IMG/VR virus record: IMGVR_UViG_3300028025_000020
DNA length: 31,539 nt
Origin: a virus
Reading direction: 5' to 3' (one strand)
Part shown: positions 1,267-30,057 of the stretch, piece after piece
Layout: each line of letters begins with the position of its first letter
Numbering within the stretch: position 1 is the first letter of the stretch
Position numbers and translations under genes: made by a program
Notes under the pieces: model-generated
What the model saw: only the letters and a program-made list of their open reading frames with translations
Told to the model about the DNA's origin: nothing
The model's database searches: none

Positions 1267-1275
1267 ATCTTTTTT

Positions 1276-1814: not shown

Positions 1815-1861
1815 TGATAAATTTTAAAAGTTTGGCTTCGTTTTTTTGTCTTACTTTGCCG

Positions 1862-4158: not shown

Positions 4159-4336
4159 ATTTATCTACGCTTGTGAATCCTAATGTTAGAATAACAACCC
4201 ATTCTACACTCTCAATAAGTTTATCGGTGTTATGGTAAAGCATAGCACCTATCAAAGCAAAGCCACCTATAATGCCTATCATTCGCTTTGAGGAAAACTC
4301 GCCTTTATCACCTTTGAATATTTCAAATATTTTCAT
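4136..4336 (-). CDS. Small membrane protein, two predicted TM segments (holin-like)
   Basis: ORF track, 66 aa. Hydrophobic stretches MIGIIGGFALIGAMLY and WVVILTLGF. Confidence 0.5.
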   Translation of the reverse strand: MKIFEIFKGDKGEFSSKRMIGIIGGFALIGAMLYHNTDKLIESVEWVVILTLGFTSVDKFGNNGKQ

Positions 4337-4484
4337 TTTTCTTTTTGTTAAAAAATAGTTTTTTTATAGATACCGCAATTGCTAAGCACACGGCAATAAA
4401 TTGTAATAGTGGTAAAATCGTAACGACAAACCCCGTTGCAACTCCAAGCCATATGCCTATCAAATCAAGTGTATCTTTTTTCAT
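4323..4484 (-). CDS. Small membrane protein (53 aa, holin-like), not in the ORF track
   Basis: Hand-translated base by base: MKKDTLDLIGIWLGVATGFVVTILPLLQFIAVCLAIAVSIKKLFFNKKKNENI*. Its ATG overlaps the TGA of the upstream gene (ATGA at 4481-4484). Its 3' end overlaps the next start by 14 nt. Confidence 0.45.
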   Translation of the reverse strand: MKKDTLDLIGIWLGVATGFVVTILPLLQFIAVCLAIAVSIKKLFFNKKKNENI

Positions 4485-4759
4485 TTTTGTATTGTTTGCG
4501 AATACCCTTCGATAGCATTCAAATAAAATTTAATTTCATACGAATATACTGCCAAAAGTGAATCGCTTTGCTTTTGTTGGCGTTCCATTTTATGCAATCT
4601 ATCGCCCATTTTTACATTCTCGCTTTCACACTTTGAAATAATGGCTTTCTTTGTATTTTCACTTTCATAGTATAAATAGCCTACAATTAAAAGCATACAA
4701 AAAGCCACCGCAGCTATGGGGTTCTTTTTAAATTCTTCAAATGAAATTGGTAGGCTCAT
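4481..4759 (-). CDS. Membrane-anchored coiled-coil protein (spanin-like topology)
   Basis: ORF track, 92 aa. N-terminal TM segment (IAAVAFCMLLIVGYLYY) followed by a charged helical region. Confidence 0.5.
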   Translation of the reverse strand: MSLPISFEEFKKNPIAAVAFCMLLIVGYLYYESENTKKAIISKCESENVKMGDRLHKMERQQKQSDSLLAVYSYEIKFYLNAIEGYSQTIQK

Positions 4760-4980
4760 TATGCTGGGAATGGTGGTGCTGGTTTAGGTATGTATTCGCC
4801 CGTTGGCAAATCTAAAATAAATGCCCACTCAGTACCTTCAATTTGTGATTTGTCTTGGTCAGATAAAAACAAAAACCATACATCGTTAATGTCTTGTACG
4901 CAATTGAAAAATTCATATGGCGTGTAAAATTGACCTTGTACTTGGTCATATTGTTCGGTTGTTAAAATGTATCCTATCAT
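4759..4980 (-). CDS. Hypothetical protein
   Basis: ORF track, 73 aa. Tightly coupled to both neighbours. Confidence 0.55.
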   Translation of the reverse strand: MIGYILTTEQYDQVQGQFYTPYEFFNCVQDINDVWFLFLSDQDKSQIEGTEWAFILDLPTGEYIPKPAPPFPA

Positions 4981-5774
4981 TATACGTTTCTTGAAAGTGT
5001 TGTTTGAAAAGTTTGAATATTTGTATATAATGCTGCAGCTTGGGTGTCGGTTAAGCCTTGACCAATTGAAGAAAAAGCATACTCTCTTGCTGAATAATTT
5101 GCGGCTGAACCATTAAAATTCTGTGCAGCAAAATAAATATTTAAAGAGGTTATTATACCATTGCTTGTATTGGATATAGTATTAATAGTTGAATTTTTTA
5201 TGCCTTTTACTTGTGTACTTGATATTCTATTTGCCATAAAAAACCCTAAAGAATTTGAACTCGATACAGTTGTAGCATTTGGTCCTTGCATTCTAAAGTA
5301 AAATTGATTACTCAATCTTGATAAAATATTTGTTTCTTTAATTCCAGATGCAACTCCCATATCTGCAATAACACTATTTAAATCAGTTCTTGAATAAATA
5401 GAAATATGTTGATTATCTGTATCTCCTGAAACTTGTGCGTAATTAGTGTCCATATAAGCTGATGTCCCGTTACCCGTAACCCCCGTACTCGCAAATGTCC
5501 ATCCACTCGTAAACGTTCCGGTAAAACTTGAACTCTTTAAGTTCTGAGCACACGCTGCAGCACTTGAACCTACCATTGGATACACGGCTTTCATAGGTGT
5601 CCAAAGTGAATTGGCTTTTAAATCGATTACCAATTGATTTACGGCAGTTTTTTCGGTAGTTGTAAGCGTACCACCCGCAGTCGTTACCCTATCAAAATAG
5701 GCTTGTGCATCTGCGTCAAACCCACCCGAAATACTGGTATTACCTACACGAATACCTAAGCTAACACCAAACAT
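4980..5774 (-). CDS. Putative tail fiber or receptor-binding accessory protein (S/T/N/G-rich)
   Basis: ORF track, 264 aa. The N-terminal DADAQAYFDRVTTAGGTLTTTEKTAVNQLVIDLKANSLW motif is followed by a Ser/Thr/Asn/Gly-rich beta-type sequence. Function inferred from composition and context. Confidence 0.45.
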   Translation of the reverse strand: MFGVSLGIRVGNTSISGGFDADAQAYFDRVTTAGGTLTTTEKTAVNQLVIDLKANSLWTPMKAVYPMVGSSAAACAQNLKSSSFTGTFTSGWTFASTGVTGNGTSAYMDTNYAQVSGDTDNQHISIYSRTDLNSVIADMGVASGIKETNILSRLSNQFYFRMQGPNATTVSSSNSLGFFMANRISSTQVKGIKNSTINTISNTSNGIITSLNIYFAAQNFNGSAANYSAREYAFSSIGQGLTDTQAAALYTNIQTFQTTLSRNV

Positions 5775-6040
5775 TATTCGTTATATAAAACGATTGAACC
5801 GCTTGTTAGCGTAATTGACGTTATGATTTGTTCTTCAGGCAAAGTGATGAAAATACCTTGCTTTAAAGTGACACCAGTTAAACCAAGTTGTGTCATTAAA
5901 GATGTACCATCAAAAGAAATCGCCGATACTACTGCGTCGCTATTAACGACAAAGCCCCTAAATCTTCCCGTGTTTGCTGATGTATTACTGATTACTTTGC
6001 AACCAGTAAAACCAGCCATAAATTCGTTTGAATTACTCAT
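5774..6040 (-). CDS. Hypothetical structural-module protein
   Basis: ORF track, 88 aa. Overlap-coupled to its neighbours. Confidence 0.55.
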   Translation of the reverse strand: MSNSNEFMAGFTGCKVISNTSANTGRFRGFVVNSDAVVSAISFDGTSLMTQLGLTGVTLKQGIFITLPEEQIITSITLTSGSIVLYNE

Positions 6041-6395
6041 ATATTTTTTCTATTAATGTTGGATTATATTCGTCTGTTGTTGTACTTGATAATTGAACTT
6101 TTAATATTCCGCTTTCAACTAACTCATTGGAAAGTGATGGGTTTAAATTTACGCTTGATGTTTGTGCGTAAACATTATACATATATTCGCCTTCAAAAAA
6201 GTTGTATGTGTTTTCGTTAACTGAAAATTTATTGTATCTATCTTTAAAGGTGCTAACATCAGTCAAAATAAAAGCATAGGTTTTATTCGTTTGTCGATGT
6301 GTAACGTAAAACAAAAACTTAGGGTTACTTATAGTGACCTTTTCTGTCAATGTTAAGTACCAAAACTTTGTCTCTCCTTTAGTGATTAGTAGCAT
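6033..6395 (-). CDS. Hypothetical structural-module protein (first gene behind late-type promoter P4)
   Basis: ORF track, 120 aa. The ATG lies 6 nt downstream of a CTAATATA box. Confidence 0.6.
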   Translation of the reverse strand: MLLITKGETKFWYLTLTEKVTISNPKFLFYVTHRQTNKTYAFILTDVSTFKDRYNKFSVNENTYNFFEGEYMYNVYAQTSSVNLNPSLSNELVESGILKVQLSSTTTDEYNPTLIEKIYE

Positions 6396-6401
6396 TATAA
6401 G

Positions 6402-6429
6402 TATATTAGCAAATAGCGTAATTTGTTAC
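6402..6429 (-). promoter_or_regulatory. Late-type bipartite promoter motif P4 (GTAACAAATTA-N9-CTAATATA)
   Basis: Minus-strand read: GTAACAAATTA CGCTATTTG CTAATATA CTTATA ATG. Same architecture and 9-nt spacer as P1-P3. Confidence 0.55.
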
Positions 6430-6432
6430 AAT

Positions 6433-6458
6433 AAAAAAGGGATGACCTAAGCCACCCC
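6433..6458 (-). terminator. Rho-independent terminator after the capsid gene block
   Basis: Minus-strand RNA GGGGUGGC-UUAG-GUCAUCCC (8 bp including 2 G.U pairs) followed by UUUUUU. The G.U pairs become A.C mismatches on the plus strand, so the hairpin is strand-specific. Confidence 0.6.
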
Positions 6459-6484
6459 CCACAGATATGAAACAAGACAGAAAT

Positions 6485-6991
6485 TTATATTCCTAATGTA
6501 GTTACTACAGAAGACTGCAGCTTGTATGGTGCTTCGATGTCCATTGATTGAAGTGTAACTTCATAACCAGTTGAATCACCAAACGCAGCACCAGTATTTG
6601 CAACCATTGAACTAACATCACAACCTGACTCTTTACCTACCAACCAATACTCATCGTTATTAGTTTTTACGATACAGAACACACGTCCCTGAGCTAATAA
6701 TTTTAACTCGTTACGCTTTGTTGTTGACAATCTACGCAATTTGAAAGCTACGTCACATTGGTTGTACACCGTGCCGTTTTCAACGCTTACGTTAGTTGTG
6801 TTAGTCATTGATGCAGTCGCCTTAGGGATGTCATAGAAATATACATCCCCACTCGCTACTGATGTTGCCGTAACTTCACCACTTGCAACTGTAAAGCCAG
6901 TTTTAGCCCAGTTAACAAGATAGATAGATTTAACGCCACCGACTGCATCTTTGCAATCAAGGGCAAAACTTTGAGAAATTAAACACGGCAT
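6485..6991 (-). CDS. Virion protein encoded directly after the major capsid gene (tail tube-like or decoration; function uncertain)
   Basis: ORF track, 168 aa. Sits between the capsid gene and a terminator, which suggests high expression. Confidence 0.5.
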   Translation of the reverse strand: MPCLISQSFALDCKDAVGGVKSIYLVNWAKTGFTVASGEVTATSVASGDVYFYDIPKATASMTNTTNVSVENGTVYNQCDVAFKLRRLSTTKRNELKLLAQGRVFCIVKTNNDEYWLVGKESGCDVSSMVANTGAAFGDSTGYEVTLQSMDIEAPYKLQSSVVTTLGI

Positions 6992-7003
6992 ATTTTATAA
7001 ATA

Positions 7004-7948
7004 TTAAAGTGTGAAATAAACTACTTCGTCAGGGAATGCAATCTGTACGCCATACTTCATTTTAGCTTTGAAATATACGTTTTCGCTGATTGGGTCGAAT
7101 ACAAATTTGTATTGTTCTTCTTCATTTGCAAGGTCAGTTCCTACGAACAAGTTAGTCAAATGAGTTGCAACCAATTTGTCTGTACCATCCAAACCACCAA
7201 CTGCAATTAACTTCATATTAGTACCTGGAATAATCATATCCATCATTCCTGGTTCAGGCATATAATGGTACAAATTAGCGTTCTTCAAGTTCACTAAGAA
7301 CTTTTTGTAGAAGTCTACACCACAAAAACAAACCAAGTTGTCCTTAGATGCAATTCTTGAAGGAATAGCAGCGTAGATAGCGTCTAAGATATCGTCAGCG
7401 TTTGAAGTTGTAACCGAAGTTGCACTAATAGTGTTCCCTGAAATAGGGTCACCAGCACCACCGAAGCCCAATGCAGTCAAGATAGTGTTAAAACCATCGA
7501 ACTTGTTAGTGTTAGGGTTAGTGTTAGATGTTGCTACAGTTCCTTGCCAAATAGCAATTTCCAATTTTTCAGCAATTACACCAGCTTTCTCTGAACCAAT
7601 AAGTTCTTCAAATGGTAAAGCTACCGCAGAACCTGGAGCGATTTGTGTTTGCATCCATTTAGCTTCTAAAGTTTTAGGGCAAAGAGTTTCTTCAACTGCA
7701 AGTTTACCAACAGTTAAAGTTCTTTGTGTGAAAGTTGTTAGACCAGATGGGGTTAAACCACATCCGTCTGTTTGGAAATAAACATCTGAGTTAAGGATGT
7801 TAAGAGTTTCAGCAGATTTGATACCTACTTGAACTTGACCAGCGTCGTACATTAAACGAGCCGTTTTACCACCGAATAGGGCTTTGCTTAATAAATTAAG
7901 ACTCTGCTCATTGGTGTAATTTGCGAGTGATGATACTACAAATGACAT
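7004..7948 (-). CDS. Major capsid protein
   Basis: ORF track, 314 aa. Follows the canonical protease-scaffold-capsid order. No motif-level proof is possible by eye. Confidence 0.7.
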   Translation of the reverse strand: MSFVVSSLANYTNEQSLNLLSKALFGGKTARLMYDAGQVQVGIKSAETLNILNSDVYFQTDGCGLTPSGLTTFTQRTLTVGKLAVEETLCPKTLEAKWMQTQIAPGSAVALPFEELIGSEKAGVIAEKLEIAIWQGTVATSNTNPNTNKFDGFNTILTALGFGGAGDPISGNTISATSVTTSNADDILDAIYAAIPSRIASKDNLVCFCGVDFYKKFLVNLKNANLYHYMPEPGMMDMIIPGTNMKLIAVGGLDGTDKLVATHLTNLFVGTDLANEEEQYKFVFDPISENVYFKAKMKYGVQIAFPDEVVYFTL

Positions 7949-7952
7949 ATTT

Positions 7953-8498
7953 TTATTTTTTCTTTAGTTGTTGTGCGATTTTTACAATGTTTGCAAATTG
8001 TTGTTCTTTTTTACTTAACGTCTCGGGTGCTTTTGTTGGTTCAGCACTTGGAAGATTTGCAACCTTCTCTACTAAGTCAACAGTTTTAGAAAACATTTCA
8101 CTTTGTTTTTCTAATTTAGCTACTACACTTTCAAATTGTGCAGTCAATAAAGCGATTTTGCTTTCTAAGTTACTTACTACTTCGTTGAATTTTTCGATTG
8201 TTGCAAATTCTTTTGCAGCTTCGATTTCAACTTCAACTTCTGCAGTAGGTTCTACGATTTCAGTTACGATACCAGCAACTGTAGTTACAAGTGTCCCACC
8301 TTCTACTTCGTGTGTAGCATCAGGAGCTGGGATATCACCTTCAGCAGTTTCTACTAAGATAGCAGTACCTACAGAAAGTTCACCTTCCCATTTGATTACC
8401 GTTCCATCGGTCAATACGGCAGTAGCCATTTCAACTGATACCGCATCGTCGAATTTCAACATTGAGCGGATTTCTTGAATTAAACTTTTAGAGTCCAT
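7953..8498 (-). CDS. Scaffolding protein
   Basis: ORF track, 181 aa. Acidic, Ala/Glu/Val-rich and helical, located between the protease and capsid genes. Confidence 0.55.
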   Translation of the reverse strand: MDSKSLIQEIRSMLKFDDAVSVEMATAVLTDGTVIKWEGELSVGTAILVETAEGDIPAPDATHEVEGGTLVTTVAGIVTEIVEPTAEVEVEIEAAKEFATIEKFNEVVSNLESKIALLTAQFESVVAKLEKQSEMFSKTVDLVEKVANLPSAEPTKAPETLSKKEQQFANIVKIAQQLKKK

Positions 8499-8505
8499 TT
8501 TTATA

Positions 8506-8533
8506 TATATTAGTTGTATGTTTTATTTGTTGC
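8506..8533 (-). promoter_or_regulatory. Late-type bipartite promoter motif P3 (GCAACAAATAA-N9-CTAATATA)
   Basis: Minus-strand read: GCAACAAATAA AACATACAA CTAATATA TATAAAA ATG. Confidence 0.55.
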
Positions 8534-8538
8534 ATTTT

Positions 8539-9117
8539 TTATTTGCCATTCCACTTCGACAATAGTGATTTCAAGTCTTCTAAAATTTTATCTTCTTCTA
8601 TAGGTTCTACAAAATCAAAAAAGCCTTCTACGCTAAAACCATTCCAAGTTCCATCTTTGCATTTTTGCCAATTTGCATCGTCTTCGATAAAGTAACTAAC
8701 AAACCAAGAACCATCTTTTGCATCTTCAAATCCTTTTGGTGGCATTATACCACGTTCAAAATCCAATAAATAAGATTCAAATAAAACGCATCCATCTATT
8801 GCCTTATCGTGATCAACATTTACACTATTGTACTTGTTGTTTTTCGCCCACTTTTTAGCAATTTTATAAATGGTTTCCTTATCGAATACCACGTAATATT
8901 CACCACGAGAATCGTCACGACGATAAATTGGCAAATCAGCCAACATCGCAGCTCCTGAAACAATCCTTTTTTCTTCATTTTGAATAGCAAATTTTCTACG
9001 CTGATTGAAAACCATAAAATCTTTTTCAATTGCTGGTTTGTCAACTAAAGAAATAAATTCGACGCCACTTTCTAAATCATCCTCAGATATGGTCAATTTG
9101 TAAATAGGTAAATCCAT
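8539..9117 (-). CDS. XkdF-like prohead protease/maturation protein
   Basis: ORF track, 192 aa. ISLVDKPAIEKDF, VNVDHD, ESY and GFSVEGFF resemble the PBSX XkdF-type family. Located upstream of the scaffold and capsid genes. Confidence 0.65.
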   Translation of the reverse strand: MDLPIYKLTISEDDLESGVEFISLVDKPAIEKDFMVFNQRRKFAIQNEEKRIVSGAAMLADLPIYRRDDSRGEYYVVFDKETIYKIAKKWAKNNKYNSVNVDHDKAIDGCVLFESYLLDFERGIMPPKGFEDAKDGSWFVSYFIEDDANWQKCKDGTWNGFSVEGFFDFVEPIEEDKILEDLKSLLSKWNGK

Positions 9118-9123
9118 ATAATG

Positions 9124-9151
9124 TATATTAGTTTAATTTAAATTTTGTTGC
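9124..9151 (-). promoter_or_regulatory. Late-type bipartite promoter motif P2 (GCAACAAAATT-N9-CTAATATA)
   Basis: Minus-strand read: GCAACAAAATT TAAATTAAA CTAATATA CATTAT ATG. Confidence 0.55.
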
Positions 9152-9152
9152 G

Positions 9153-11117
9153 TTATTCTACTACACTTACACTTTGATTGTTGCTTACACGCTTTTGTGT
9201 GCGTGAAATATCGCCTTCGGTAACGTACACACGTCTGTCTTGTGTTAACTCGTTGCCATTGCCTAAACTTGACATACGAGGTGCAGCCATTTGTTGCATT
9301 CCACCACCAGAAGATTGTGTTGGCATACTACCACCTTGTGCATTTTTACTTTGAAATTTAGTTTCGCTAATCCTTTTTACTGCTGCCAATCCAGAAGCAA
9401 GTGCCAAACCAGCATTAACAAATTGTTGACCAGGAAATAAAGGGACTGAACTTAAGGCAGCTGTCACACCTTGATATGTGTTTATAATTGCTTGTGCAAT
9501 TTGTGCTGCTTTGTTTACTTCAAATGCTTTCTTTTGGTCTTCTTCGCTTTGAGTTGCAAACGCACTGTAAATGTCAGCAATTGCCGTTAAAGAATCATTG
9601 ACTGCTTGGTATTTTGCAGTTTGAATTTCTTTTTCTTTTTCGGCTTTTGCTTTTTCTTTTGCTAAATCTTGTTCACGAATTTGGTCTTTTTGTGAAGCTA
9701 TTTGTTTGTCAATTTCAATTATACTTTCACCATATTTTAAACGTGTTAACCTTTGTTCTTCTAAACTTGCTTGTTCTTTTGCTTTTATTTGCTCATTCGT
9801 TTTTGTTTGGTCAGTTAACTTTTCATCACGAATTTTAATAAAGTTAATTTCTTTTTCATATCTATCTTGAACGGCTTTTAATTCAGCCTCAATAAATTTT
9901 TGACGATTCTCTTTTATTTCATCTTCTTTTTTCTTTTGCTCAGCACTTTCTTTATCCGTAAATTCTTTTCTTGCCTTGTCAAGTTCAACATTTCTTAGTT
10001 TTAAAATTTGAGCCTCTGTGTACCCTTGTTCTTTTAAACCTTTGACTTTAGTGTCAAACGCTGCATTGGTTGCTTTTTGAACATCGGTTAAAGTACTTTG
10101 ATTTAACGCCAACAAAGTTGCCCTACGTTCAAGTGCATTGGCTGCTTCTTTTGCTGAATTTTCTTTTCTTTTGTTTGCGGCTTCTTTATCTGCTGCACTT
10201 TTTTTATCCGATTGTTCTGTTATATAGTTTTTTTCTTCAATAGATAAAATTTTCAATGCGTTTTTAGTATCATCAATAATTTTGCCCCATTCCTTTTCGT
10301 TGTTTTTACCCATATTTGCACGGGCTTGTATTAAATCATTGTTTAATTTTTCACGTTGTTTTGCAAATGCCCCTAACTCGTTACCCTGAGCCTTTAGTAA
10401 TGCAATTTCACGTTCTAATTTGTCGTTTGATTTATCAGTTGTTTTGTTGAGTTTATCCAAAGCCCTATCCTGAGCCGATGTTATACCTAACCAATCGGTA
10501 AAACCTTGTACTAATTCACCCACAAAATTGGCAAAATCTGCAAATCCTGGTATTAAATTGGAAAGTGTTTTTTTAACTTTTTCAAAATTTGCAATAACAT
10601 AAGTAAGTGCAGCAATTAGCAAACCAATACCAAGTGCAGACATTGAACCTTTCAAAGTGCTAAATGCTTTTGTTACATTGCCTTTTAATTGTGTCGCTAA
10701 TGTTTTAAATTGTTGTTGTACTTTGCCAATGCCTTCAAGTCCTTGAGCCAATGCCATTGCACCTTGTACCTTTACAAGTGTCTTTTGCAAATCTTGACTT
10801 TCGCTACCGAACAAAGCCATTGCACCTTGTGCTGCCTGAAATCCATTTGCAACTCCACTTACAACCGTTTGAACCTTTGCAAACTTGTCAGGGTTTAAGG
10901 CTTTTACTCGGTCGTTAAAATCTTCCATTTGGTCGGATAGATTTGCAACCTTTTGTTGACCCGCTAATGCTTCTTGACTAAATTCGCCAAACGTTGCAAC
11001 TAATTGTTGAGCCTCGTTTTTGGCTTCTTTTAATTGTTGTTTAAACGTTTTTACGGTTTCTGTTGCACCACCTTTTGGGGTTACTTCGATTTCTATTGCT
11101 GCGGTTGATTTTGCCAT
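9153..11117 (-). CDS. Tape-measure-like or internal virion protein (long coiled coil)
   Basis: ORF track, 654 aa. Lys/Glu/Gln/Ala-rich heptad-like sequence with central hydrophobic segments (ALGIGLLIAALTYVIANF) and a Gly/Ser/Met-rich C-terminus. Confidence 0.55.
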   Translation of the reverse strand: MAKSTAAIEIEVTPKGGATETVKTFKQQLKEAKNEAQQLVATFGEFSQEALAGQQKVANLSDQMEDFNDRVKALNPDKFAKVQTVVSGVANGFQAAQGAMALFGSESQDLQKTLVKVQGAMALAQGLEGIGKVQQQFKTLATQLKGNVTKAFSTLKGSMSALGIGLLIAALTYVIANFEKVKKTLSNLIPGFADFANFVGELVQGFTDWLGITSAQDRALDKLNKTTDKSNDKLEREIALLKAQGNELGAFAKQREKLNNDLIQARANMGKNNEKEWGKIIDDTKNALKILSIEEKNYITEQSDKKSAADKEAANKRKENSAKEAANALERRATLLALNQSTLTDVQKATNAAFDTKVKGLKEQGYTEAQILKLRNVELDKARKEFTDKESAEQKKKEDEIKENRQKFIEAELKAVQDRYEKEINFIKIRDEKLTDQTKTNEQIKAKEQASLEEQRLTRLKYGESIIEIDKQIASQKDQIREQDLAKEKAKAEKEKEIQTAKYQAVNDSLTAIADIYSAFATQSEEDQKKAFEVNKAAQIAQAIINTYQGVTAALSSVPLFPGQQFVNAGLALASGLAAVKRISETKFQSKNAQGGSMPTQSSGGGMQQMAAPRMSSLGNGNELTQDRRVYVTEGDISRTQKRVSNNQSVSVVE

Positions 11118-11126
11118 TTTTTTGTT

Positions 11127-13844
11127 TTAAGGTACTATCACAAAATATTTTGTGCCAGTTGATATGTATTGATGTGTTTTTTTGTCGGTGGTAATTGTGT
11201 TAGTTGTTGCATCGTCTATTAAAATAGAACCATCACCAGCCGTTACTGTTATTGTATGTCCCGAGCCTATTTTTTTAACTACAAATATTTTGCCTTTATT
11301 TGCTGATGGGTCAGGTAAAATTACAGATATGTTGCCAGTCATATTGCACACTATTAAATAGTCATCGTATAAAGATGTGTAAGGGCTATCGGTGTGGTCA
11401 ATTTCAATTACATTACCACCACAACTATAGGCACCCATCTGTGGGAAATTTTCTACATAGAAACGATTTGATTCTGTGATTGAATAAGTATCGCAATTTA
11501 TCGCCGTTACACTTTCAAAATTAATTGGGATGTCTACTTGTGTACCACCTAAAATAGTGTTTGCAAATCGACCTTGCGAAACGTGGTCATTTCCTACCGT
11601 GATATTGTCTTTTGAATCTAATTCGCTATCTCCAATGTTTACGCCCCCAGTAGTTACGCCCGTGAATCCAATTGGTTTGCCGAATGGGTATGTATCGTTT
11701 AATACATCTTTACCACCTACACCGATATTTTTTTGATTTGTAGTCGAGGGTTCGTAATAGGTGACCAAAAGAAATTCACATAGATACACGCCTTCTTGCA
11801 AAGGGTTGTAATCACTTACCTTGTTTAATCTCCAATATTGTCCCTCAAAGAAATATAAGTCTTTAAATTGAATGTTAGCCCATTGATACGGATTGATACG
11901 GAAATATCCTTTGAATACCTTAGAATTTTTGTCGGTGATTTCCTTAATTGTTTTAAACCAATAAACATTAACTAAGTTTTGGTTGCTGAATTTAAGTCCT
12001 TTGTCTGCTAAAATGTAATTCGACATACCAAAATTTAGGTCAAATTGCATATTGTCGGTATCGTCAATGTGAAGCGTTAAAGGATATTTGTTTTTATTTG
12101 GTGTGCCAGTTAACGTAGTGTTGTATAATTCGTATGGCGTTGTGTTTTTTAAGCCATTATAATATAAACACCTTAATTGTCCTTTGTCATTATTCCCATT
12201 TAAAATAATAGAATAGTATCTATTGCCTGAAGATAATAACATTGTAGGTGCAAATGTAATTTCTATTTTCTTTTCTTGTTTTACAAAGTCATTGTCTACT
12301 CGCACAACCCTTTCACCATAAATTTTACTTGTGCTTTGCTTATATTCTTTATTGTAAAAATCTTCGCCCTCTTTAAATGTAAAAATATAAGGGTTTGCTT
12401 CAAGGTCGCCCATTGGAACTATTTGCACGTTTTGGGAATAGTCAACTAAATTTGTCCAATCTTGTGTTGAGCCATTATAGAAATCGTCACGTGGTACAAA
12501 TCTAAGTTTCTTAGGGTTGTCCATATCTTGTTCAATATACAAGTTAAACATTTTAACAAAGTTTAAAAGCATATCCTTTTGCGTATAATCACCACTAAAG
12601 AATAAACCAAAATCTATTGCGTTACCATAAGCAAATTGATTTGCTGCCGATTGATTATAGAATTTAGTATCGTTATATAAATCTACAAAGGGATTTCCTG
12701 AACCTATATTTAAAAACTTAAAATTCAAATATTTTACTTGCACATAATCACCAGCAATTAATTGAATGGTTTGCACATCTGTATAATCAAAATTCCAAGC
12801 CGAATCCGAACTATTATCTGAAACTCCCGAAAATGTTTTTACAAGTACATTATTTTTAAAAAGTCCAAACGTTAAAACTCCATAATCTGGTGTGGGTATA
12901 GGCACACCTACTGATGCAATGGCTTTTACTTTTAAAAAGAAATCAAAATTGGCTGCCGTTGGTGATACATAACGATAAGTTGTAGTGTTAAAATTACCAC
13001 CAGTATCAAAATTCCCACCAGTAGAATCGTTGTTAAATGTAATAAGGTCGTTTGGATTTATAGCAATTACTCCAGCATTAAACCCAGCTTGGAATAACCT
13101 TTGTTGTATTGCGTTATCGTCACTTGTAAAACCATAATTTGTGTATGGTATAATTAAACGCTTAAATCTTGATGTCGTAAAAAAAGAATCACTTGTATAT
13201 TGGTAACCAGTAGTTGACATTATTTTGTCAATTATAGTTTTAGCATATAAGCACGGCACGTGGTCGTCAACACGCCATTGGCTTGTGTTGGTATTTTGTG
13301 AACCAAACTTGTTTAGCATTTGTGCGTAAACATAACCCTCACCATACGCAAACGCTTGTGAACCTCCATTTTTTACAATTGAAGTGTCCCAAGAATTAGT
13401 CACATTGGTATCGGTTAATGTATGGTTGTATTCGTCAAAGTTTAACTCAGTTAATTTAGCATTGCCAAGCGTTGTAAACAAGTCAGCAGTTTGTCCGTGT
13501 AGTGAACATTCATATTCAATAAAATCGTGGTCTAAGACGTTTATTTGAATCAATCGTATAAACCCCCTTAACTGCTCGAATCCGTCGACCAATACAACTA
13601 CATCAGCTTTTTTGTTTGGGTTAAAGTTTGGTGCAAATTGCCCACTCCCTAAGACCGTGTGTTCAACTTCAAATATACCACCGAATAAAATGTTGTTTGT
13701 TTTTGTGCCTGGTATCTTTGCAGTCTTTGACCAATCACTTGACCTTTGCTCAGGGTTTTTAATATCAGCAATTGAACGGGTTATAAGCAAGTCGAAATCT
13801 TCGCTTAAATCGACCAGCGTATTATTTACGAATAAATTTATCAT
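11127..13844 (-). CDS. Large tail/host-recognition protein
   Basis: ORF track, 905 aa. The largest gene, Asn/Thr/Gly/Tyr-rich beta-type sequence, overlap-coupled to the 379-aa gene. Confidence 0.6.
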   Translation of the reverse strand: MINLFVNNTLVDLSEDFDLLITRSIADIKNPEQRSSDWSKTAKIPGTKTNNILFGGIFEVEHTVLGSGQFAPNFNPNKKADVVVLVDGFEQLRGFIRLIQINVLDHDFIEYECSLHGQTADLFTTLGNAKLTELNFDEYNHTLTDTNVTNSWDTSIVKNGGSQAFAYGEGYVYAQMLNKFGSQNTNTSQWRVDDHVPCLYAKTIIDKIMSTTGYQYTSDSFFTTSRFKRLIIPYTNYGFTSDDNAIQQRLFQAGFNAGVIAINPNDLITFNNDSTGGNFDTGGNFNTTTYRYVSPTAANFDFFLKVKAIASVGVPIPTPDYGVLTFGLFKNNVLVKTFSGVSDNSSDSAWNFDYTDVQTIQLIAGDYVQVKYLNFKFLNIGSGNPFVDLYNDTKFYNQSAANQFAYGNAIDFGLFFSGDYTQKDMLLNFVKMFNLYIEQDMDNPKKLRFVPRDDFYNGSTQDWTNLVDYSQNVQIVPMGDLEANPYIFTFKEGEDFYNKEYKQSTSKIYGERVVRVDNDFVKQEKKIEITFAPTMLLSSGNRYYSIILNGNNDKGQLRCLYYNGLKNTTPYELYNTTLTGTPNKNKYPLTLHIDDTDNMQFDLNFGMSNYILADKGLKFSNQNLVNVYWFKTIKEITDKNSKVFKGYFRINPYQWANIQFKDLYFFEGQYWRLNKVSDYNPLQEGVYLCEFLLVTYYEPSTTNQKNIGVGGKDVLNDTYPFGKPIGFTGVTTGGVNIGDSELDSKDNITVGNDHVSQGRFANTILGGTQVDIPINFESVTAINCDTYSITESNRFYVENFPQMGAYSCGGNVIEIDHTDSPYTSLYDDYLIVCNMTGNISVILPDPSANKGKIFVVKKIGSGHTITVTAGDGSILIDDATTNTITTDKKTHQYISTGTKYFVIVP

Positions 13845-14980
13845 AAACGTTGAACCTTATCTACAAATGACAAATCGCATTCAATTGTCAAATTAAAAAC
13901 TTTGTCGTTTAGCAATGTTTTTACTGAATAGTCGGTGTTTGTGATGTTAATGGCTTTTAAAACACCATCGTCTAACAACCAAATAGAGGGTGAAGCTACC
14001 AACTCTTTGAGCCATACACTTTCTTCTTCGGTTATCCAATTGGAATTGAGTGTAATTTTTTGCATTATTTCGGTGTTGTAGTTACTTGTACTTCTTGCAC
14101 TTGTCTCGTAGGAATAACTTGAACCTGATAAACTGTATTGTGTTTGTTTGTAGGTTTTTCTTTGTATAGTAAAGTTATCCTTTCTGACCCTATTAAACCG
14201 AAATGACTCAATAGCCCCGTATCTGTTGAGGAAGTAAACGTCATTATTTGCGTACTTTGTGCATTCATCTTTTATGTCTATTCTGTATGTTTCACTTGTT
14301 GAGCCACTACCCTTTGCTTTGACCTCTAAATAGGTTGCACCACTTGCTGGTATAATTGGGATTCGTAAAACTGAATCCGTGATTCCACTCAACAAAATTA
14401 TTTGCGTTGTGGCTGCTGGGTAAGTTTTAATTTCTACAGTCAAAGCGTTACCACGCCAAAAGTAAAGCCAATCCTTTTGACCTTTATAAATTGTCTTTGA
14501 ACGTAATGATGTTAAAAACTCAGCATTCTTTGAAGTGTTAATTTTGTAGTCGTTTTCGTCAAACGAAACAAAGTCAATAGGGTTTAAAGCCATATTATAC
14601 GCAGTTAACCCCGTGACGTTGGTTGCACCACTAACTTCGATAATTGGTGAAGTAGAACTCGTTGAATATTCGTAACCAAAATTTACTTTGTAGCCTATGT
14701 AACTATTCGGACATCCACTGACAGACGTATCGTCAATGTCCCAATCAAAAGTTACAAAGTTTTCAATTAACCTACCAATGTTAAATACACTTTTGTTGGT
14801 GCTATTTGGATAGATAGGTGCTTTTAAGCGTGCAATTCGTGTTGTATTTTGAAATACATCGGCAATAAATTTAAAGTTTGGCTTAGTGTAAATAGCACTA
14901 TCACTCTCAGTAATGACAAAATTTAAATCATTATATGCTGGTGCGTTATCGTCGGGTTTTTGATTGACTGTTATACTCAC
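13841..14980 (-). CDS. Tail structural protein (first gene of the late block; GTG start)
   Basis: ORF track, 379 aa. The start codon read at 14980-14978 is GTG, 5 nt downstream of a CTAATATA box. Confidence 0.6.
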   Translation of the reverse strand: MSITVNQKPDDNAPAYNDLNFVITESDSAIYTKPNFKFIADVFQNTTRIARLKAPIYPNSTNKSVFNIGRLIENFVTFDWDIDDTSVSGCPNSYIGYKVNFGYEYSTSSTSPIIEVSGATNVTGLTAYNMALNPIDFVSFDENDYKINTSKNAEFLTSLRSKTIYKGQKDWLYFWRGNALTVEIKTYPAATTQIILLSGITDSVLRIPIIPASGATYLEVKAKGSGSTSETYRIDIKDECTKYANNDVYFLNRYGAIESFRFNRVRKDNFTIQRKTYKQTQYSLSGSSYSYETSARSTSNYNTEIMQKITLNSNWITEEESVWLKELVASPSIWLLDDGVLKAINITNTDYSVKTLLNDKVFNLTIECDLSFVDKVQRL

Positions 14981-14985
14981 ACTTA

Positions 14986-15013
14986 TATATTAGCACTTTG
15001 TGAATTTTGTTGC
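14986..15013 (-). promoter_or_regulatory. Late-type bipartite promoter motif P1 (GCAACAAAATT-N9-CTAATATA)
   Basis: Minus-strand read: GCAACAAAATT CACAAAGTG CTAATATA TAAGT GTG. Confidence 0.55.
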
Positions 15014-15020
15014 TTTGATG

Positions 15021-15054
15021 AAAAAACCCCCATACTTGGTTAAAAATATGAGGG
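15021..15054 (-). terminator. Rho-independent terminator T2
   Basis: Minus-strand RNA CCCUCAUA-(12-nt loop)-UAUGGGGG (8 bp including one G.U) followed by UUUUUU. Confidence 0.6.
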
Positions 15055-15075
15055 TCAAAGCACGATTGAAAGAAC
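15021..15075 (-). ncRNA. Candidate ~55-nt promoter-proximal transcript, unit 2 (from the E4 box to T2)
   Basis: The box TATATTTG (15080-15087) lies within a 14-nt string GTGTATATTTGTAT that is identical to the E2 promoter. It is followed by ATTGTTCTT...TTTGAC and terminator T2, with no ORF. Confidence 0.3.
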
Positions 15076-15103
15076 AATACAAATATACACTAATTTATGA
15101 CAT

Positions 15104-15129
15104 AAAAAAACCCCACAACTTGTGTAGGG
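15104..15129 (-). terminator. Rho-independent terminator T1
   Basis: Minus-strand RNA CCCUACA-CAAGU-UGUGGGG (7 bp including one G.U) followed by UUUUUUU. Confidence 0.6.
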
Positions 15130-15162
15130 CTAAAAGTCAAAACTTTTGTATTTTAGAAGAAC
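15104..15162 (-). ncRNA. Candidate ~58-nt promoter-proximal transcript, unit 1 (from the E3 promoter to T1)
   Basis: CTTGCATATT...-N20-TAGGTTTG (15167-15198) resembles early promoter E1. It is followed by ATTGTTCTT...TTTGAC and terminator T1, with no ORF. It is paralogous to unit 2, offset by ~87 nt. Confidence 0.3.
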
Positions 15163-15166
15163 AATG

Positions 15167-15198
15167 CAAACCTAAACTAAATTTCTTAAATATGCAAG
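15167..15198 (-). promoter_or_regulatory. Host-type promoter-like element E3 (CTTG-N20-TAGGTTTG)
   Basis: Minus-strand GCTTGCATATTTAAGAAATTTAGTTTAGGTTTG. The segment TTGCATATT-AA-AAA-TTT aligns with promoter E1. Confidence 0.4.
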
Positions 15199-15300
15199 CA
15201 CCATTGATTCAAACGTGGTACATTTTTGTAAATCTTTGCTAAATTCTTTTTGTTTACCAACGTAAAATGCAACGGTGTTTAAAAACTCAACAATAGGCAT
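15172..15300 (-). CDS. Possible small ORF (42 aa), hypothetical
   Basis: Hand-translated: MPIVEFLNTVAFYVGKQKEFSKDLQKCTTFESMVLAYLRNLV*. It overlaps the E3 promoter-like element. No supporting motif. Confidence 0.2.
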   Translation of the reverse strand: MPIVEFLNTVAFYVGKQKEFSKDLQKCTTFESMVLAYLRNLV

Positions 15301-15347
15301 CTGTAAAATATAATCCCATTTATCACGTTGCCCTTTACAAATTGCGT

Positions 15348-15908
15348 TTACGAGTTCAAACCATCCTTGTATGCCATTGCTTTTGCCTTGAGATTCTCCA
15401 CCATCTGACTCAAATAAGTTTGGGTAGCGTCCAACAATTTCGGATAAAGACGAGAAAAAAAAAGCGTGTAGCCGTGTGCAATCTGATACGGCAAATGTAA
15501 AAACAAGTTACTGACTTCTTCAAATTGCAAACCTAAGTTTTTGATTTTCTTTGGTCGACCAAATATGTTTACTTCTTCACTCATCATTGCCATTATCCTA
15601 TGCAAATTTGGAAGCATGTCGTCGCTATTAAATTGTTGAAGTGATATGAAGTGTTGTCCTTGCATTTCCATTGCGTTAGGAATCATTCTAAATCGCCTAC
15701 CTTTAATTTTAAATCTAAGCTGAATAGTATCTTCAAACTTTAAATTATCCATTATTGTATTGAACCGATTGAATAAGTCGTAAACTTTCATTTCTTCGAC
15801 ATCGTCAATATCTCTACCATCTACTATGCAAATAGTGTGAATGGCTTTTTCTAAAGGTGAATAGTGGTCTATCTCCTTTAATTCTTGAATATGTTTAATT
15901 GTTATCAT
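15348..15908 (-). CDS. Hypothetical protein downstream of terL
   Basis: ORF track, 186 aa. Its ATG overlaps the terL stop. Confidence 0.6.
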   Translation of the reverse strand: MITIKHIQELKEIDHYSPLEKAIHTICIVDGRDIDDVEEMKVYDLFNRFNTIMDNLKFEDTIQLRFKIKGRRFRMIPNAMEMQGQHFISLQQFNSDDMLPNLHRIMAMMSEEVNIFGRPKKIKNLGLQFEEVSNLFLHLPYQIAHGYTLFFSRLYPKLLDATQTYLSQMVENLKAKAMAYKDGLNS

Positions 15909-17095
15909 TATGCGAATGCAAATATACCTTTTTTATTATGTTTTTTACAATCTACTGCAAGTGCTAAGGACATAACACAGTCATCGTGCAGTCCACTTGG
16001 TGCAGAATATTTTACTCCCGTTCGGGTGTATTCGTACTCGATATTCTCCAATTCGTACCCGATAGGTGATTCAGGGAATGCAATTGAATTTTGTTGTATT
16101 TCCATAACTAACCCCTCAATAAGTTGTTGTTTACTTTGTGATGTGAATCTAAAACCTTTTATGTTAGGTAATAAGCGTTGTAGATTCTCAACTATAGGAT
16201 CTCCAACACCGGTACTATCACAGTATGCTGGTATTCTGCCAACTACATTAACAATTTTTTGTTGTGTTTGTTGCCAATCGGCTTGGAATCTATCCACATA
16301 ACACACTCTATTAACGCTATCAAGTCCTATTATCACAGTCCAGTCCGTGTATTTTGCTAAGTCAATACCAAACGCAATAGGTGTACTATTGCTAATAGGT
16401 GAATAACATCTACGAATATTGTCTATTCCAAAAGGATTTGACTTATCGTCACCAGGTTCTGCAAGATATAACTCTTTAAATACAAACTCTGGTAAATCTC
16501 GTTTCGCTTGTTCTATTTCTTCAACGTCTAATATACCTTCTTTTGCAGCATCGTATGCCGTTATCTTAAAGAACTTATAGTCAGGTTCACCAAGTCTTGC
16601 ACGTTCACCAAGTTTATAAAACCAATTCTTTTTACCTTTAACGTTACCAATTAGTTTACACTTGCCTTTTGTAGCTGTGAGTGTAGAACGTAAAGCAAAC
16701 CAACTTTCTTCACGCATACGTGACGCTTCGTCAACTACTGCTGCGTATACATCGTCTCCGTACAAGTTATCGGGCTTTTCACCTGACTTAAATTCAATCC
16801 TTGCACCATTTGGTAAAACAAGTGTTAACTTACTTTCGTTTGAAATAAAGAAGTCTTTTACATTGACTTGTGTTTTCATACGTCTGAAAGCGATTTCAGC
16901 TTGTTGATACACTGGTGCAACCCACCACACAGATTGATTCTCTTTTAATTGTAGGGCTTGTTCAAACATCCAAATAATATGACTTGCAGTTTTACCGCAT
17001 TTAGTTGCTGCTGCCGTTATTGTGTAACGTTCTGGAGCGTCTAAAATTGCTTTTTGGTAAGACGTGACAAATGGTCTATTATAGGTTATTTGCAT
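15908..17095 (-). CDS. terL: Terminase large subunit
   Basis: ORF track, 395 aa. Walker A-like AAATKCGKTAS, Walker B-like AAVVDEASRM, and a C-terminal nuclease-like region with conserved acidic residues (GIDLAKYTDW..., LHDDCVMSLALA). Confidence 0.8.
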   Translation of the reverse strand: MQITYNRPFVTSYQKAILDAPERYTITAAATKCGKTASHIIWMFEQALQLKENQSVWWVAPVYQQAEIAFRRMKTQVNVKDFFISNESKLTLVLPNGARIEFKSGEKPDNLYGDDVYAAVVDEASRMREESWFALRSTLTATKGKCKLIGNVKGKKNWFYKLGERARLGEPDYKFFKITAYDAAKEGILDVEEIEQAKRDLPEFVFKELYLAEPGDDKSNPFGIDNIRRCYSPISNSTPIAFGIDLAKYTDWTVIIGLDSVNRVCYVDRFQADWQQTQQKIVNVVGRIPAYCDSTGVGDPIVENLQRLLPNIKGFRFTSQSKQQLIEGLVMEIQQNSIAFPESPIGYELENIEYEYTRTGVKYSAPSGLHDDCVMSLALAVDCKKHNKKGIFAFA

Positions 17096-17253
17096 AGAAT
17101 TTCAATAGTTACACGTTCTATATTTTCAAATAATATTACAACGTGATAATCTTCTTTTAAAGATAAATCATTCAAATATTCAAAAGTTCCGTCACCTATT
17201 TGTGTTAAAGGAACTCTTATTACTGCAATTGATTTTCTTTTTCTTATAAACAT
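17086..17253 (-). CDS. Small hypothetical protein (55 aa), not in the ORF track
   Basis: Hand-translated: MFIRKRKSIAVIRVPLTQIGDGTFEYLNDLSLKEDYHVVILFENIERVTIEILCK*. It overlaps both the glycosyltransferase stop and the terL start, and fills the only gap there. Confidence 0.4.
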   Translation of the reverse strand: MFIRKRKSIAVIRVPLTQIGDGTFEYLNDLSLKEDYHVVILFENIERVTIEILCK

Positions 17254-18260: not shown

Positions 18261-18433
18261 TCGCCTGGTAATAAAGGAATGTGCATCCAATAAATAGGTG
18301 ATTTTAAAACGATGTCTGTTTGGAAATCGTACCACATTTCATCGTCATAATATGCAACCAAATTGTCAGACGTCAAAACTGGTCTGTCGTCGCTTGGTTT
18401 TTGTTCTGTTGTTAATCTCCACGATACCTTCAT
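18257..18433 (-). CDS. DUF551-like small protein (58 aa), not in the ORF track
   Basis: Hand-translated: MKVSWRLTTEQKPSDDRPVLTSDNLVAYYDDEMWYDFQTDIVLKSPIYWMHIPLLPGE*. ATGA overlaps at both ends. The pattern W..P...PVL...W....W..IP.LP recalls DUF551. Confidence 0.5.
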   Translation of the reverse strand: MKVSWRLTTEQKPSDDRPVLTSDNLVAYYDDEMWYDFQTDIVLKSPIYWMHIPLLPGE

Positions 18434-18651
18434 AGTTTCAATTGTTCATCATCTAAAATTTCGTGCAGTTTATCCCTTACAATTACATAGGTGTTAAATG
18501 TATCGTCACTCATTCCTTCGGTTGGGTGTTTGATTTCTGACCTTAAAAATGCGTTTATTCTCCACATTGCCATTGACCATTTAGCCCCATCCAATGCAAG
18601 GTTAAAATCTTCGCTATCTTCGGGCAAGTTAAATTCAAGTATTGCTTTCAT
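18430..18651 (-). CDS. Hypothetical protein
   Basis: ORF track, 73 aa. Confidence 0.55.
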   Translation of the reverse strand: MKAILEFNLPEDSEDFNLALDGAKWSMAMWRINAFLRSEIKHPTEGMSDDTFNTYVIVRDKLHEILDDEQLKL

Positions 18652-19237: not shown

Positions 19238-19243
19238 TCTCGA

Positions 19244-20586: not shown

Positions 20587-20801
20587 TTGTTAGTTGTTGT
20601 TGAAGTGTGTTCACTTTGTTGTTCAAATATATCAGTTCTTTGTTCTCCTGAAATTTCCTTGCTTTGTAGCCCATTGTTATCAGTAGGCAAACAAAAATGA
20701 TTTTTAATAAATTCATAATCTTTCGTTATTTGGTGTTTAATTGTATTATCAATGTCGTGGTATTTCATAAGACGAAAATAAAATGCTTGAAGTTTATTCA
20801 T
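20583..20801 (-). CDS. Hypothetical protein
   Basis: ORF track, 72 aa. Coupled to the sigma gene and the membrane protein gene. Confidence 0.5.
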   Translation of the reverse strand: MNKLQAFYFRLMKYHDIDNTIKHQITKDYEFIKNHFCLPTDNNGLQSKEISGEQRTDIFEQQSEHTSTTTNK

Positions 20802-21294
20802 ATTCGTTTATGATTTGTCTTTTTATGTCTTTGATTACCCTTAGTACTTCACGTAATGTTATTTTGGTTTTACGATGGATTGACCTTGCCGATTCACCAT
20901 TCGACCACATTGTAAAGATTTCCCGTTCGTACCATTTGTTTTTGCTTACTACGTTTTCAATCAGTTTATATTTGTTTTCCTTTTCGATGGCATCGTCTAT
21001 TGTGTTTAAATATTCTATCTGTACATTTTCAATATCAAATAGTCCTATCGGCTTCATAACGTCGTAGAACTTTTGACGTGGTGTTGAACTTTGCGACCAC
21101 ATTATTTTAATGCAAAACAATTTAATATAACCATCGTTGTAAACCTTTATTAATTTGTCATCTGGCATTTCACATAAAATAAGTAAAAGATGTTGAGCTA
21201 AATCGTCGTGGAATAAGGGCGATATTGTTTTTGACGCCTTATAAAGCCATTCTGATTTTGCAACTTCTATCAGTATATTATTTTTGATGTGCAA
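20794..21294 (-). CDS. ECF-like sigma factor (regions 2 and 4)
   Basis: ORF track, 166 aa. The start codon read at 21294-21292 is TTG. Region 2-like HDDLAQHLLLIL...YIKLFCIKIMWSQ. Region 4 HTH-like YEREIFTMWSNGESARSIHRKTKITLREVLRVIKDIKRQI. Confidence 0.6.
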   Translation of the reverse strand: MHIKNNILIEVAKSEWLYKASKTISPLFHDDLAQHLLLILCEMPDDKLIKVYNDGYIKLFCIKIMWSQSSTPRQKFYDVMKPIGLFDIENVQIEYLNTIDDAIEKENKYKLIENVVSKNKWYEREIFTMWSNGESARSIHRKTKITLREVLRVIKDIKRQIINEYE

Positions 21295-21300
21295 ATATTA

Positions 21301-21417
21301 CTATATTTTTTTCAATTCTACAAATTTATATCCATTTTTCTCTGCTTTTTTTTTATAATACTCAACTTCTTCTTCGGAATTTAGGCAGTACACTTCTTGG
21401 TACTTATTTTTTTCCAT
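21301..21417 (-). CDS. Possible small ORF (38 aa)
   Basis: Hand-translated: MEKNKYQEVYCLNSEEEVEYYKKKAEKNGYKFVELKKI*. It overlaps the upstream stop and fills the gap before the sigma gene. Confidence 0.3.
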   Translation of the reverse strand: MEKNKYQEVYCLNSEEEVEYYKKKAEKNGYKFVELKKI

Positions 21418-27819: not shown

Positions 27820-27850
27820 CAAATATACACACGTTTTCTATATATGCAAA
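27820..27850 (-). promoter_or_regulatory. Host-type early promoter E2 (TTTG-N19-TATATTTG, 4 nt from the ATG)
   Basis: Minus-strand ATTGAAAATAAAGTTTGCATATATAGAAAACGTGTGTATATTTGTATCATG. Matches the Bacteroidota -33 TTTG / -7 TAnnTTTG consensus and aligns with E1. Confidence 0.6.
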
Positions 27851-30026: not shown

Positions 30027-30057
30027 CAAAAATACAAAAAGTTTTTTAATATGCAAA
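30027..30057 (-). promoter_or_regulatory. Host-type early promoter E1 (TTTG-N19-TATTTTTG, 4 nt from the ATG)
   Basis: Minus-strand ATTGTAAAATAAATTTGCATATTAAAAAACTTTTTGTATTTTTGTTCTATG. Confidence 0.6.

Follow-up and report, generated by a model that had tools for sequence, protein, structure and literature searches.

Four bipartite elements ahead of the virion genes of a metagenomic phage: candidate late promoters for a diverged ECF-like sigma factor

The IMG/VR virus record IMGVR_UViG_3300028025_000020, a stretch of 31,539 nucleotides referred to here as the window, raises the question of what reads the virion genes of its phage. Four copies of a 28-nt bipartite element, P1 to P4, stand on the minus strand, each a few nucleotides upstream of the first codon of a virion gene, and a gene at 20794-21294 encodes a small protein resembling sigma factors of the extracytoplasmic function (ECF) type. 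An initial annotation, made from the letters alone, took the four copies for late promoters, plausibly read by the phage sigma factor. The parts of that proposal open to analysis in silico, namely conservation, geometry, the -35 box, the sigma family and the placement of host-type elements, have held. We consider it likely that P1 to P4 are phage-sigma-dependent late promoters giving near-leaderless mRNAs, where the pairing with the sigma factor, the late timing and the start sites are the parts we infer.

The four copies and their surroundings

14986..15013, minus strand: P1, GCAACAAA (15013-15006), 12 nt, CTAATATA (14993-14986), then TAAGT and GTG (14980); full element GCAACAAAATTCACAAAGTGCTAATATA.
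9124..9151, minus strand: P2, GCAACAAA-N12-CTAATATA, then CATTAT and ATG (9117); full element GCAACAAAATTTAAATTAAACTAATATA.
8506..8533, minus strand: P3, GCAACAAA-N12-CTAATATA, then TATAAAA and ATG (8498); full element GCAACAAATAAAACATACAACTAATATA.
6402..6429, minus strand: P4, GTAACAAA-N12-CTAATATA, then CTTATA and ATG (6395); full element GTAACAAATTACGCTATTTGCTAATATA.

All four lie on the minus strand where the initial annotation had placed them, and the gap of 5-7 nt that it gave between element and start codon proved to be 5, 6, 7 and 6 nt for P1 to P4, followed by GTG, ATG, ATG and ATG. Of its consensus, the two boxes with an N9 spacer stood; the "WTW" ending the first box did not, as P3 reads TAA there. 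With that correction, GYAACAAAWWW-N9-CTAATATA matches all four sites with 0 mismatches in a search of both strands of the window. When two or fewer mismatches are allowed, the search still returns just the same four sites, where 0.05 are expected from shuffles and 0 of 100 shuffles contain four or more. A weight matrix of 34 columns, built from relatives and scored on both strands as well as on 30 shuffled genomes, assigns 39.1, 36.8, 34.9 and 32.3 bits to P1, P2, P3 and P4; the runner-up on either strand scores 7.7 bits, and the maximum over the 30 shuffles is 17.6. A whole-genome scan of this kind had been named as a check for copies within coding regions, and it shows none.

Single boxes are found elsewhere in the window (CTAATATA three more times, GYAACAAA six times), and no two of them pair at the right spacing. 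One exact CTAATATA lies inside a 183-aa gene (1988-1995, minus strand), lacks a -35 box and is away from any start codon, which is consistent with chance occurrence of an AT-rich 8-mer.

ECF promoters typically carry AAC at -35 and a group-specific -10 box, with a spacer of 14-17 bp (PMC5758882). The initial annotation had likened the first box to such a -35 element, and the likeness extends to the spacing: AAC is present in the -35 element, as G[CT]AAC in all four window copies, the distance from AAC to CTA is 15 nt, within the ECF range, and the arrangement AAC-N15-CTA is invariant. An A-tract (AACAAAA or AACAAAT) on the 3' side of the -35 core is seen in all window copies and in clades A and B of the relatives described below; it may have a part in bending the DNA.

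The window is a circularly closed genome of 31412 bp with an identical 127-bp overlap at its ends (1-127 = 31413-31539), and all of its genes are on the minus strand. The stretch from 943 to 20800 has just four intergenic gaps of more than 15 nt, each with one copy of the element, so the copies, described in the initial annotation as sitting in the few intergenic gaps of the virion module, fill every late-region gap of that size. The six other gaps longer than 15 nt all belong to the early region and have no copy. Each copy heads a block of genes. Downstream of P1 is the tail block, with proteins of 379 aa and 905 aa and a 654-aa tape-measure-like protein. P2 heads an XkdF-type prohead protease gene, 8539-9117 (Pfam PF14550, E = 2e-13), and P3 a scaffold-like gene (7953-8498), a capsid candidate (7004-7948) and a gene for a protein of 168 aa (6485-6991). 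P4 heads the downstream virion genes, among them the portal gene at 2410-4158.

Terminator-like structures on the coding strand precede two of the copies.

6437..6460, minus strand: hairpin plus T-run resembling an intrinsic terminator, at the end of the capsid operon and 8 nt before P4.
15131-15109 and 15056-15025, minus strand: two tandem terminator-like hairpins, ending the sigma/terminase unit just upstream of P1.

The first of these, read from 6460 to 6437, bears out the earlier remark that P4 lies immediately after a terminator. These three are the only strong coding-strand terminators genome-wide, and they stand directly before P1 and P4.

The element had also been described as differing from host-type promoters of the TTTG/TAnnTTTG kind. 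Elements of that kind do occur in the early region and 5' of the sigma gene; TAnnTTTG was not found at P1-P4, nor between the boxes and their start codons.

Conservation of the element in relatives

IMG/VR contains 455 relatives of the capsid protein. No DNA match to the late region was found among GenBank phages, and protein searches returned no cultured relative, TerL being at most 33% identical to its matches and the sigma-like protein having no match in the phage collection. The 28 closest loci, in which capsid identity is 87% or more, contain 67 copies of AACAA-N13-CTAATA, every one on the gene strand (0 on the opposite strand) and always at the same four junctions. Conservation in related phages, which the initial annotation had listed among its checks, is thus strand-specific and extends to position.

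Among distinct sequences of relatives the boxes are constant and the 12-15 nt between them drift; variants of the P1 spacer include aaaattcacaaagtg, aatatttactatttg, aaaaactacattttg and aaaaatctattattg. Over 2.43 Mb of related loci, the gene strand has 120 copies of G[CT]AAC-N15-CTAAT and the other strand 4. Other spacings give smaller counts, all inside conserved coding sequence; an apparent excess at N16/N17 was rejected as a promoter signal, since it arises from conserved coding sequence.

Five more distant clades, with capsids 60-66% identical, keep the same geometry at the same junctions in the general form xxxAC-N15-CTAwwwww, that is, five bases ending in C, 15 nt, then CTA and five A/T, with clade-specific boxes.

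Clade B: -35 box GCAACAAA; -10 box CTAATTTA.
Clade C: -35 box (T/A)GCC, with GGGAC at P1; -10 box CTAATTAT or CTATTTAT.
Clade D: -35 box TTGAGAC or TTGTTAC; -10 box CTATTTAT.
Clade D': -35 box GGGAC, GCAAC or GTTAC; -10 box CTATTTT(C/A/G) or CTAATTTA.
Clade E: -35 box TGGAAC; -10 box CTATTTTT.

G[CT]AAC is present in all clade A/B relatives, GGAAC in clade E, and GCC or GAC in clade C. The pairs seen include GCAAC with CTAATTTA and GAGCC or GGGAC with CTAATTAT. Clade C opens the gene behind P1 with ATG, at the position where clades A, B, D and E have GTG, and this retention of the start position across clades supports it as the true start.

This pattern of conservation bears on the possibility that the repeats are not transcription signals at all, and serve instead as module-boundary or recombination sequences or as a context for translation initiation. 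The repeats do lie exactly at module junctions, a gene has been inserted beside such a junction in one relative, and an AT-rich stretch before the start codon would suit hosts whose translation does without Shine-Dalgarno sequences. The element is nevertheless strictly strand-specific and bipartite, its 15-bp spacing is invariant, and its boxes are kept while the spacer drifts. Some 45 other genes in the genome start without it, so it is not needed for translation, and it matches no Rfam family (neither Rfam families nor tRNA genes were found anywhere in the window). Placement directly after terminators and the co-occurring sigma gene fit promoters. We regard a role outside transcription as very improbable.

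The insertion just mentioned, in relative L025 (11480-11620), is an extra gene with a host-type TATATTTG box, placed after the capsid-operon terminator at the position of P4; it may be a mobile or moron gene.

The sigma-like protein and its pairing with the element

20794..21294, minus strand: diverged ECF-like sigma factor of 166 aa, with two predicted helical domains and a linker; candidate reader of P1-P4.

Evidence on the nature of this protein comes from its family. It has 39 close homologs in metagenomes, and a profile of these finds 1296 cluster representatives, most over nearly full length. Curated models were compared with 89 family members, each related to the window protein over its full length.

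TIGR02937 (sigma70-ECF): 63 of 89 members, best E = 3.8e-11.
TIGR02985 (Bacteroides-expansion sigma-70, Sig70_bacteroi1): 26 of 89 members.
NF058625 (GFO_1088/PG0214 ECF-type sigma): 12 of 89 members.
Pfam Sigma70_r4_2: 8 of 89 members.
Pfam Sigma70_r2: 2 of 89 members.

A PDB search with the family profile gave alignments over the whole length to SigW (E = 0.011) and SigH (E = 0.044); one with a profile restricted to close homologs returned noise only. The AlphaFold model (pLDDT 82) shows a pair of helical domains and, between them at residues 84-95, a disordered linker. The top PDB structural matches of the full-length model are nearly all sigma factors, mostly ECF (SigL, probability 0.97), and superposition of the C-terminal domain on sigmaE region 4 in its complex with -35 DNA gives TM 0.76 and a root-mean-square deviation of 1.5 A. 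Matches among viral models are proteins named Sigma70-ECF or RpoE, together with the ECF sigma factor of phage GAP52 (E = 0.038). An hhalign comparison of the family with a single RpoE sequence aligned only the helix-turn-helix, at 5% probability; a local hidden Markov model of RpoE orthologs was uninformative, the RpoE homologs being at least 86% identical to the query and too uniform for a profile. We conclude, from transitive homology and the overall predicted fold and with no direct curated match, that the window protein appears to be a very diverged member of the sigma-70/ECF family. The ECF-like sigma factor of the initial annotation is thereby retained, by way of its family members.

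A different role for the same protein would be that of an activator: the 28-mer would be the operator of a phage helix-turn-helix protein of the Mor/C-like kind that recruits the host primary-sigma holoenzyme. The window protein shows weak similarities to Mor (Pfam, E = 0.079) and to an IS1 helix-turn-helix, one source labels a fragment "Mor family transcriptional regulator", and the C-terminal domain is a generic helix-turn-helix. Such an activator would leave the primary sigma factor nothing to bind, as no TAnnTTTG lies between the boxes and the start codons. The two half-sites differ from each other and are spaced like -35 and -10 boxes, unlike a dimer operator, and the full-length sigma model matches in 63 of the 89 members, with Sigma70_r2 in two, speak for a sigma factor. 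We think an activator unlikely to be the explanation.

The case for pairing P1-P4 with the phage sigma factor rests on synteny and on the boxes themselves. Every clade whose region upstream of TerL was retrieved has a sigma-gene homolog there, 4-6 kb from TerL. The encoded proteins form three deep lineages with about 30-40% mutual identity. Lineages A/B and D/E share the helix-turn-helix SAR(S/A)(I/L)HRKTxI(S/T)(L/V)RE(V/I)LRV despite only about 32% overall identity, and their -35 boxes end in AC; lineage C has SARSISR(A/V)TxISR(Q/H)EILRV, and its -35 boxes are mostly GCC. This apparent co-variation of region 4 with the -35 box is suggestive rather than decisive.

The same observations bear on a third alternative, in which a host alternative (ECF) sigma factor reads the boxes and the phage protein acts otherwise, for example as an anti-sigma decoy or an activator. 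Bacteroidota encode many ECF sigma factors, and the curated models nearest to the phage family are ECF models of Bacteroidota, so specificities could overlap; an AAC -35 box with a 15-bp spacer is, besides, a generic ECF feature. A syntenic phage sigma gene nevertheless accompanies the promoters in every clade, and the boxes change together with the phage region-4 helix, which a fixed host sigma factor would not predict. A late-gene programme resting on a stress-induced host sigma factor would, moreover, be fragile. A host reader therefore seems to us improbable, and dependence on the phage sigma factor remains the preferred reading.

The late motif was not found at the sigma gene, where the best weight-matrix score is -0.9. 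The gene starts with TTG, and a conserved TAnnTTTG box lies about 26 nt upstream in the window and in its equivalents in L107, L124, L156, L144 and L186. Host-type candidates were noted at three places.

21321..21328, minus strand: TAAATTTG, candidate host-type (Bacteroidota) -7 box upstream of the sigma gene, without a clear -33 TTTG.
27820..27850, minus strand: early host-type promoter candidate, TTTG ... TATATTTG.
30027..30057, minus strand: early host-type promoter candidate, TTTG ... TATTTTTG; a similar block is present in relatives.

The TAAATTTG box is conserved in clades A, A', x and E, and we infer a promoter function for it. A sigma gene downstream of a host-type -7 box and lacking the late motif fits a cascade from host to phage sigma factor, in which the host-type promoters probably serve before the switch. 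In some clade C loci, an in-frame TGA precedes the conserved N-terminal codons of the sigma gene (HIKK...), and the vicinity has no canonical start codon.

The host itself is probably a member of Bacteroidota, to judge from the type of early promoter, the scarcity of Shine-Dalgarno sequences (an SD-like sequence precedes only 6 of 49 genes) and the nearest ECF families, which are those of Bacteroidota. E. coli-type promoters are not enriched in the genome. A search of the bacterial and archaeal genome collection with the sigma profile found nothing.

Several observations weigh against dependence of P1-P4 on a phage sigma factor. The window protein has no sequence match in Pfam, PHROG, NCBIfam-sigma models or the PDB, and it falls below every threshold of the curated sigma models Sigma70_r2, Sigma70_r4/r4_2 and TIGR02937. 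Its N-terminal domain, modelled alone (pLDDT 86) and searched with Foldseek against the PDB, gave no match to sigma region 2. The -10 box starts with CTA and not with the CGT frequent in well-studied ECF promoters. The co-variation of region 4 with the -35 box counts as a single evolutionary event, and clade C keeps GGGAC at P1. Near-leaderless late mRNAs would be atypical for a host of this phylum, given that leaders exceed 10 nt in 87% of Flavobacterium johnsoniae mRNAs and average 33 nt (PMC6847099). Finally, the sole relative found in the genome collection with the capsid profile, contig CAUYTX010000333.1 (L241/L242), is labelled Gammaproteobacteria. It belongs to the assembly "Gammaproteobacteria bacterium CCP3-SC1AL1" and carries the capsid gene twice, inverted, a few kb apart; it is probably an amplification chimera and not a reliable host link.

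Start sites, precedents and further observations

The C of CTA lies 13, 14, 15 and 14 nt from the start codon at P1, P2, P3 and P4, and 12-16 nt from it across clades. In Salmonella phage 7-11, the sigma factor gp47 (SaPh711_gp47) reads GTAAtg-N16-aCTA, and start sites are 6-9 bp downstream (PMC8948821). By analogy with 7-11, the distance of 13-15 nt would place +1 no more than about 7 nt ahead of the start codon and no further downstream than the codon's own first base, and the geometry thus points to leaderless or near-leaderless late mRNAs. That the 12-16 nt constraint is kept in all clades argues that the coupling of promoter to start codon is functional. The first 40 nt of the four predicted mRNAs have weak folds (-0.5 to -2.8 kcal/mol), no different from shuffles.

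The course of events would then be as follows. The small diverged ECF-type sigma factor (20794-21294) would be made first, probably from a host-type promoter, and would join the host core RNA polymerase. Its region-4 helix-turn-helix would read G(C/T)AAC(AAA) at about -35; its region 2 would read CTAATATA, placed at about -12 to -5, and AAC and CTA are 15 bp apart. Transcription would start at the start codon or a few nucleotides before it, so that the mRNAs of the tail, protease, scaffold/capsid and portal-side operons would have leaders of about 0-7 nt and be leaderless or nearly so. The terminators before P1 and P4 would insulate the units, and the closely spaced P2 and P3 would add transcription through the scaffold and capsid genes. 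A bolder version, tentative and rather doubtful, is that the late promoter is hard-wired to the start codon family-wide, giving truly leaderless late operons that include the one with GUG at P1, in a presumed host phylum that makes no use of Shine-Dalgarno sequences and yet gives its own mRNAs leaders of about 33 nt as a rule, and that the clades hold orthogonal sigma/promoter pairs (AAC versus GCC, with matching region-4 helices).

Phage sigma factors that redirect the host polymerase to late promoters are well known, among them phiEco32 gp36, 7-11 gp47, T4 gp55 and SPO1 gp34. The closest precedent is 7-11, where a diverged phage sigma factor works with the host core polymerase at bipartite late promoters whose -35 box is of the GTAA type and whose -10 box contains CTA. 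In 7-11, as here, the promoters are upstream of late gene blocks, and the ECF sigma factor among our structural matches is from GAP52, a phage related to 7-11. The boxes of the two phages are analogous, not identical: CTA follows the start of the -35 box by 20 nt here and by 23 nt in 7-11, the present phage has the longer -10 box (CTAATATA), and its boxes are locked at 12-16 nt from the start codon. The genome type (here 31-kb, siphovirus-like) and the probable host phylum also differ.

In phiEco32, an ECF-like phage sigma factor likewise turns host RNA polymerase to middle and late genes through an AT-rich -10-like element; gp36 recognizes middle/late promoters of the form tAATGTAtA, with start sites 6-8 bp downstream (PMC8948821, PMC12276001). 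Those promoters have a single element and gp36 has no recognisable region 4, in contrast to the conserved -35 box and region-4-like helix-turn-helix described here. A cofactor like phiEco32 gp79 was not identified in this genome, nor did annotation of the window proteins find a phage RNA polymerase gene. T4 late promoters (TATAAATA), served by gp55, gp33 and gp45 (PMC2988020), offer a comparable AT-rich 8-mer at -10, a diverged phage sigma factor and late genes as targets; they lack a -35 box and depend on the sliding clamp, whereas here the -35 box is conserved at fixed spacing.

The likeness to bacterial group 4 ECF systems lies in the AAC core, the short fixed spacer, close adherence to consensus and a sigma-like protein of about 170 aa. 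Group 4 factors join sigma2 to sigma4 by a linker within about 160-200 aa and lack regions 1.1 and 3; for the window protein two helical domains are predicted. The B. subtilis sigmaW, sigmaM and sigmaX promoters follow tgaAAC-N16-CGT, and a T-tract after AAC modulates selectivity among the ECF promoters of that species (PMC5758882). Here CTAwwwww takes the place of CGT and an A-tract that of the T-tract, and the sigma gene has no autoregulatory promoter; an anti-sigma gene was not recognised in this genome. Bacteroidota primary-sigma promoters consist of -33 TTTG and -7 TAnnTTTG, the latter 4-5 nt before the start site, and host leaders average 33 nt (PMC6847099), whereas P1-P4 lack TAnnTTTG and their predicted leaders are 0-7 nt.

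Distinctive here are a sigma family without annotation, the new consensus G(C/T)AACAAA-N12-CTAATATA, the terminator-promoter architecture and the coupling to the start codon. The reading proposed here supplies a transcription map for the phage, leading from host-type early promoters through the phage sigma factor to four late promoters bounded by terminators. It would do so for a phage family that is abundant and known only from metagenomes, with more than 450 related IMG/VR contigs and no cultured relative. The family of the sigma-like protein, with about 1300 representatives and mostly without annotation, would also gain a function. If the start sites are confirmed, the phage would be a clear case of a whole late programme carried on leaderless or near-leaderless mRNAs. 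It would also offer compact sigma/promoter pairs for use as orthogonal switches in Bacteroidota, where genetic tools are scarce.

The rest of the genome completes the picture. The early/replication region encodes an exonuclease, a DnaD-like loader and a DnaB helicase; downstream of the sigma-like gene are small genes, a glycosyltransferase-like gene and TerL (17095-15908). The gene at 7004-7948 is, from its position, probably the major capsid gene; its match was phrog_11320 (unknown function), and sequence and profile searches of the PDB gave no sequence relative. An open reading frame (ORF) of about 42 aa (MPIVEFLNTV...) at 15173-15299, minus strand, lies inside the 367-nt "gap" upstream of the terminators that precede P1, leaving a non-coding stretch of about 190 nt upstream of P1; relatives have a 61-aa ORF at a similar place. 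At the window start, an apparent gene-free stretch of 940 bp proved to be an artefact: an ORF of 328 aa, missing from the ORF list, crosses the circular junction there (958 -> 31384, minus strand).

A repeat of about 36 nt (...ACATACGGAGGTAACAAATG) is present in three copies on the minus strand (25962-25997, 26510-26545 and 26719-26754), and through it three small early genes are each preceded by a strong Shine-Dalgarno sequence, GGAGGT; it includes GTAACAAA without a CTAATATA partner. The portal protein (2410-4158) has a C-terminal winged-helix/MarR-like domain at residues ~427-473 (HTH_24, E = 1.3e-6; MarR, E = 5.2e-6), an unusual fusion for a portal protein.

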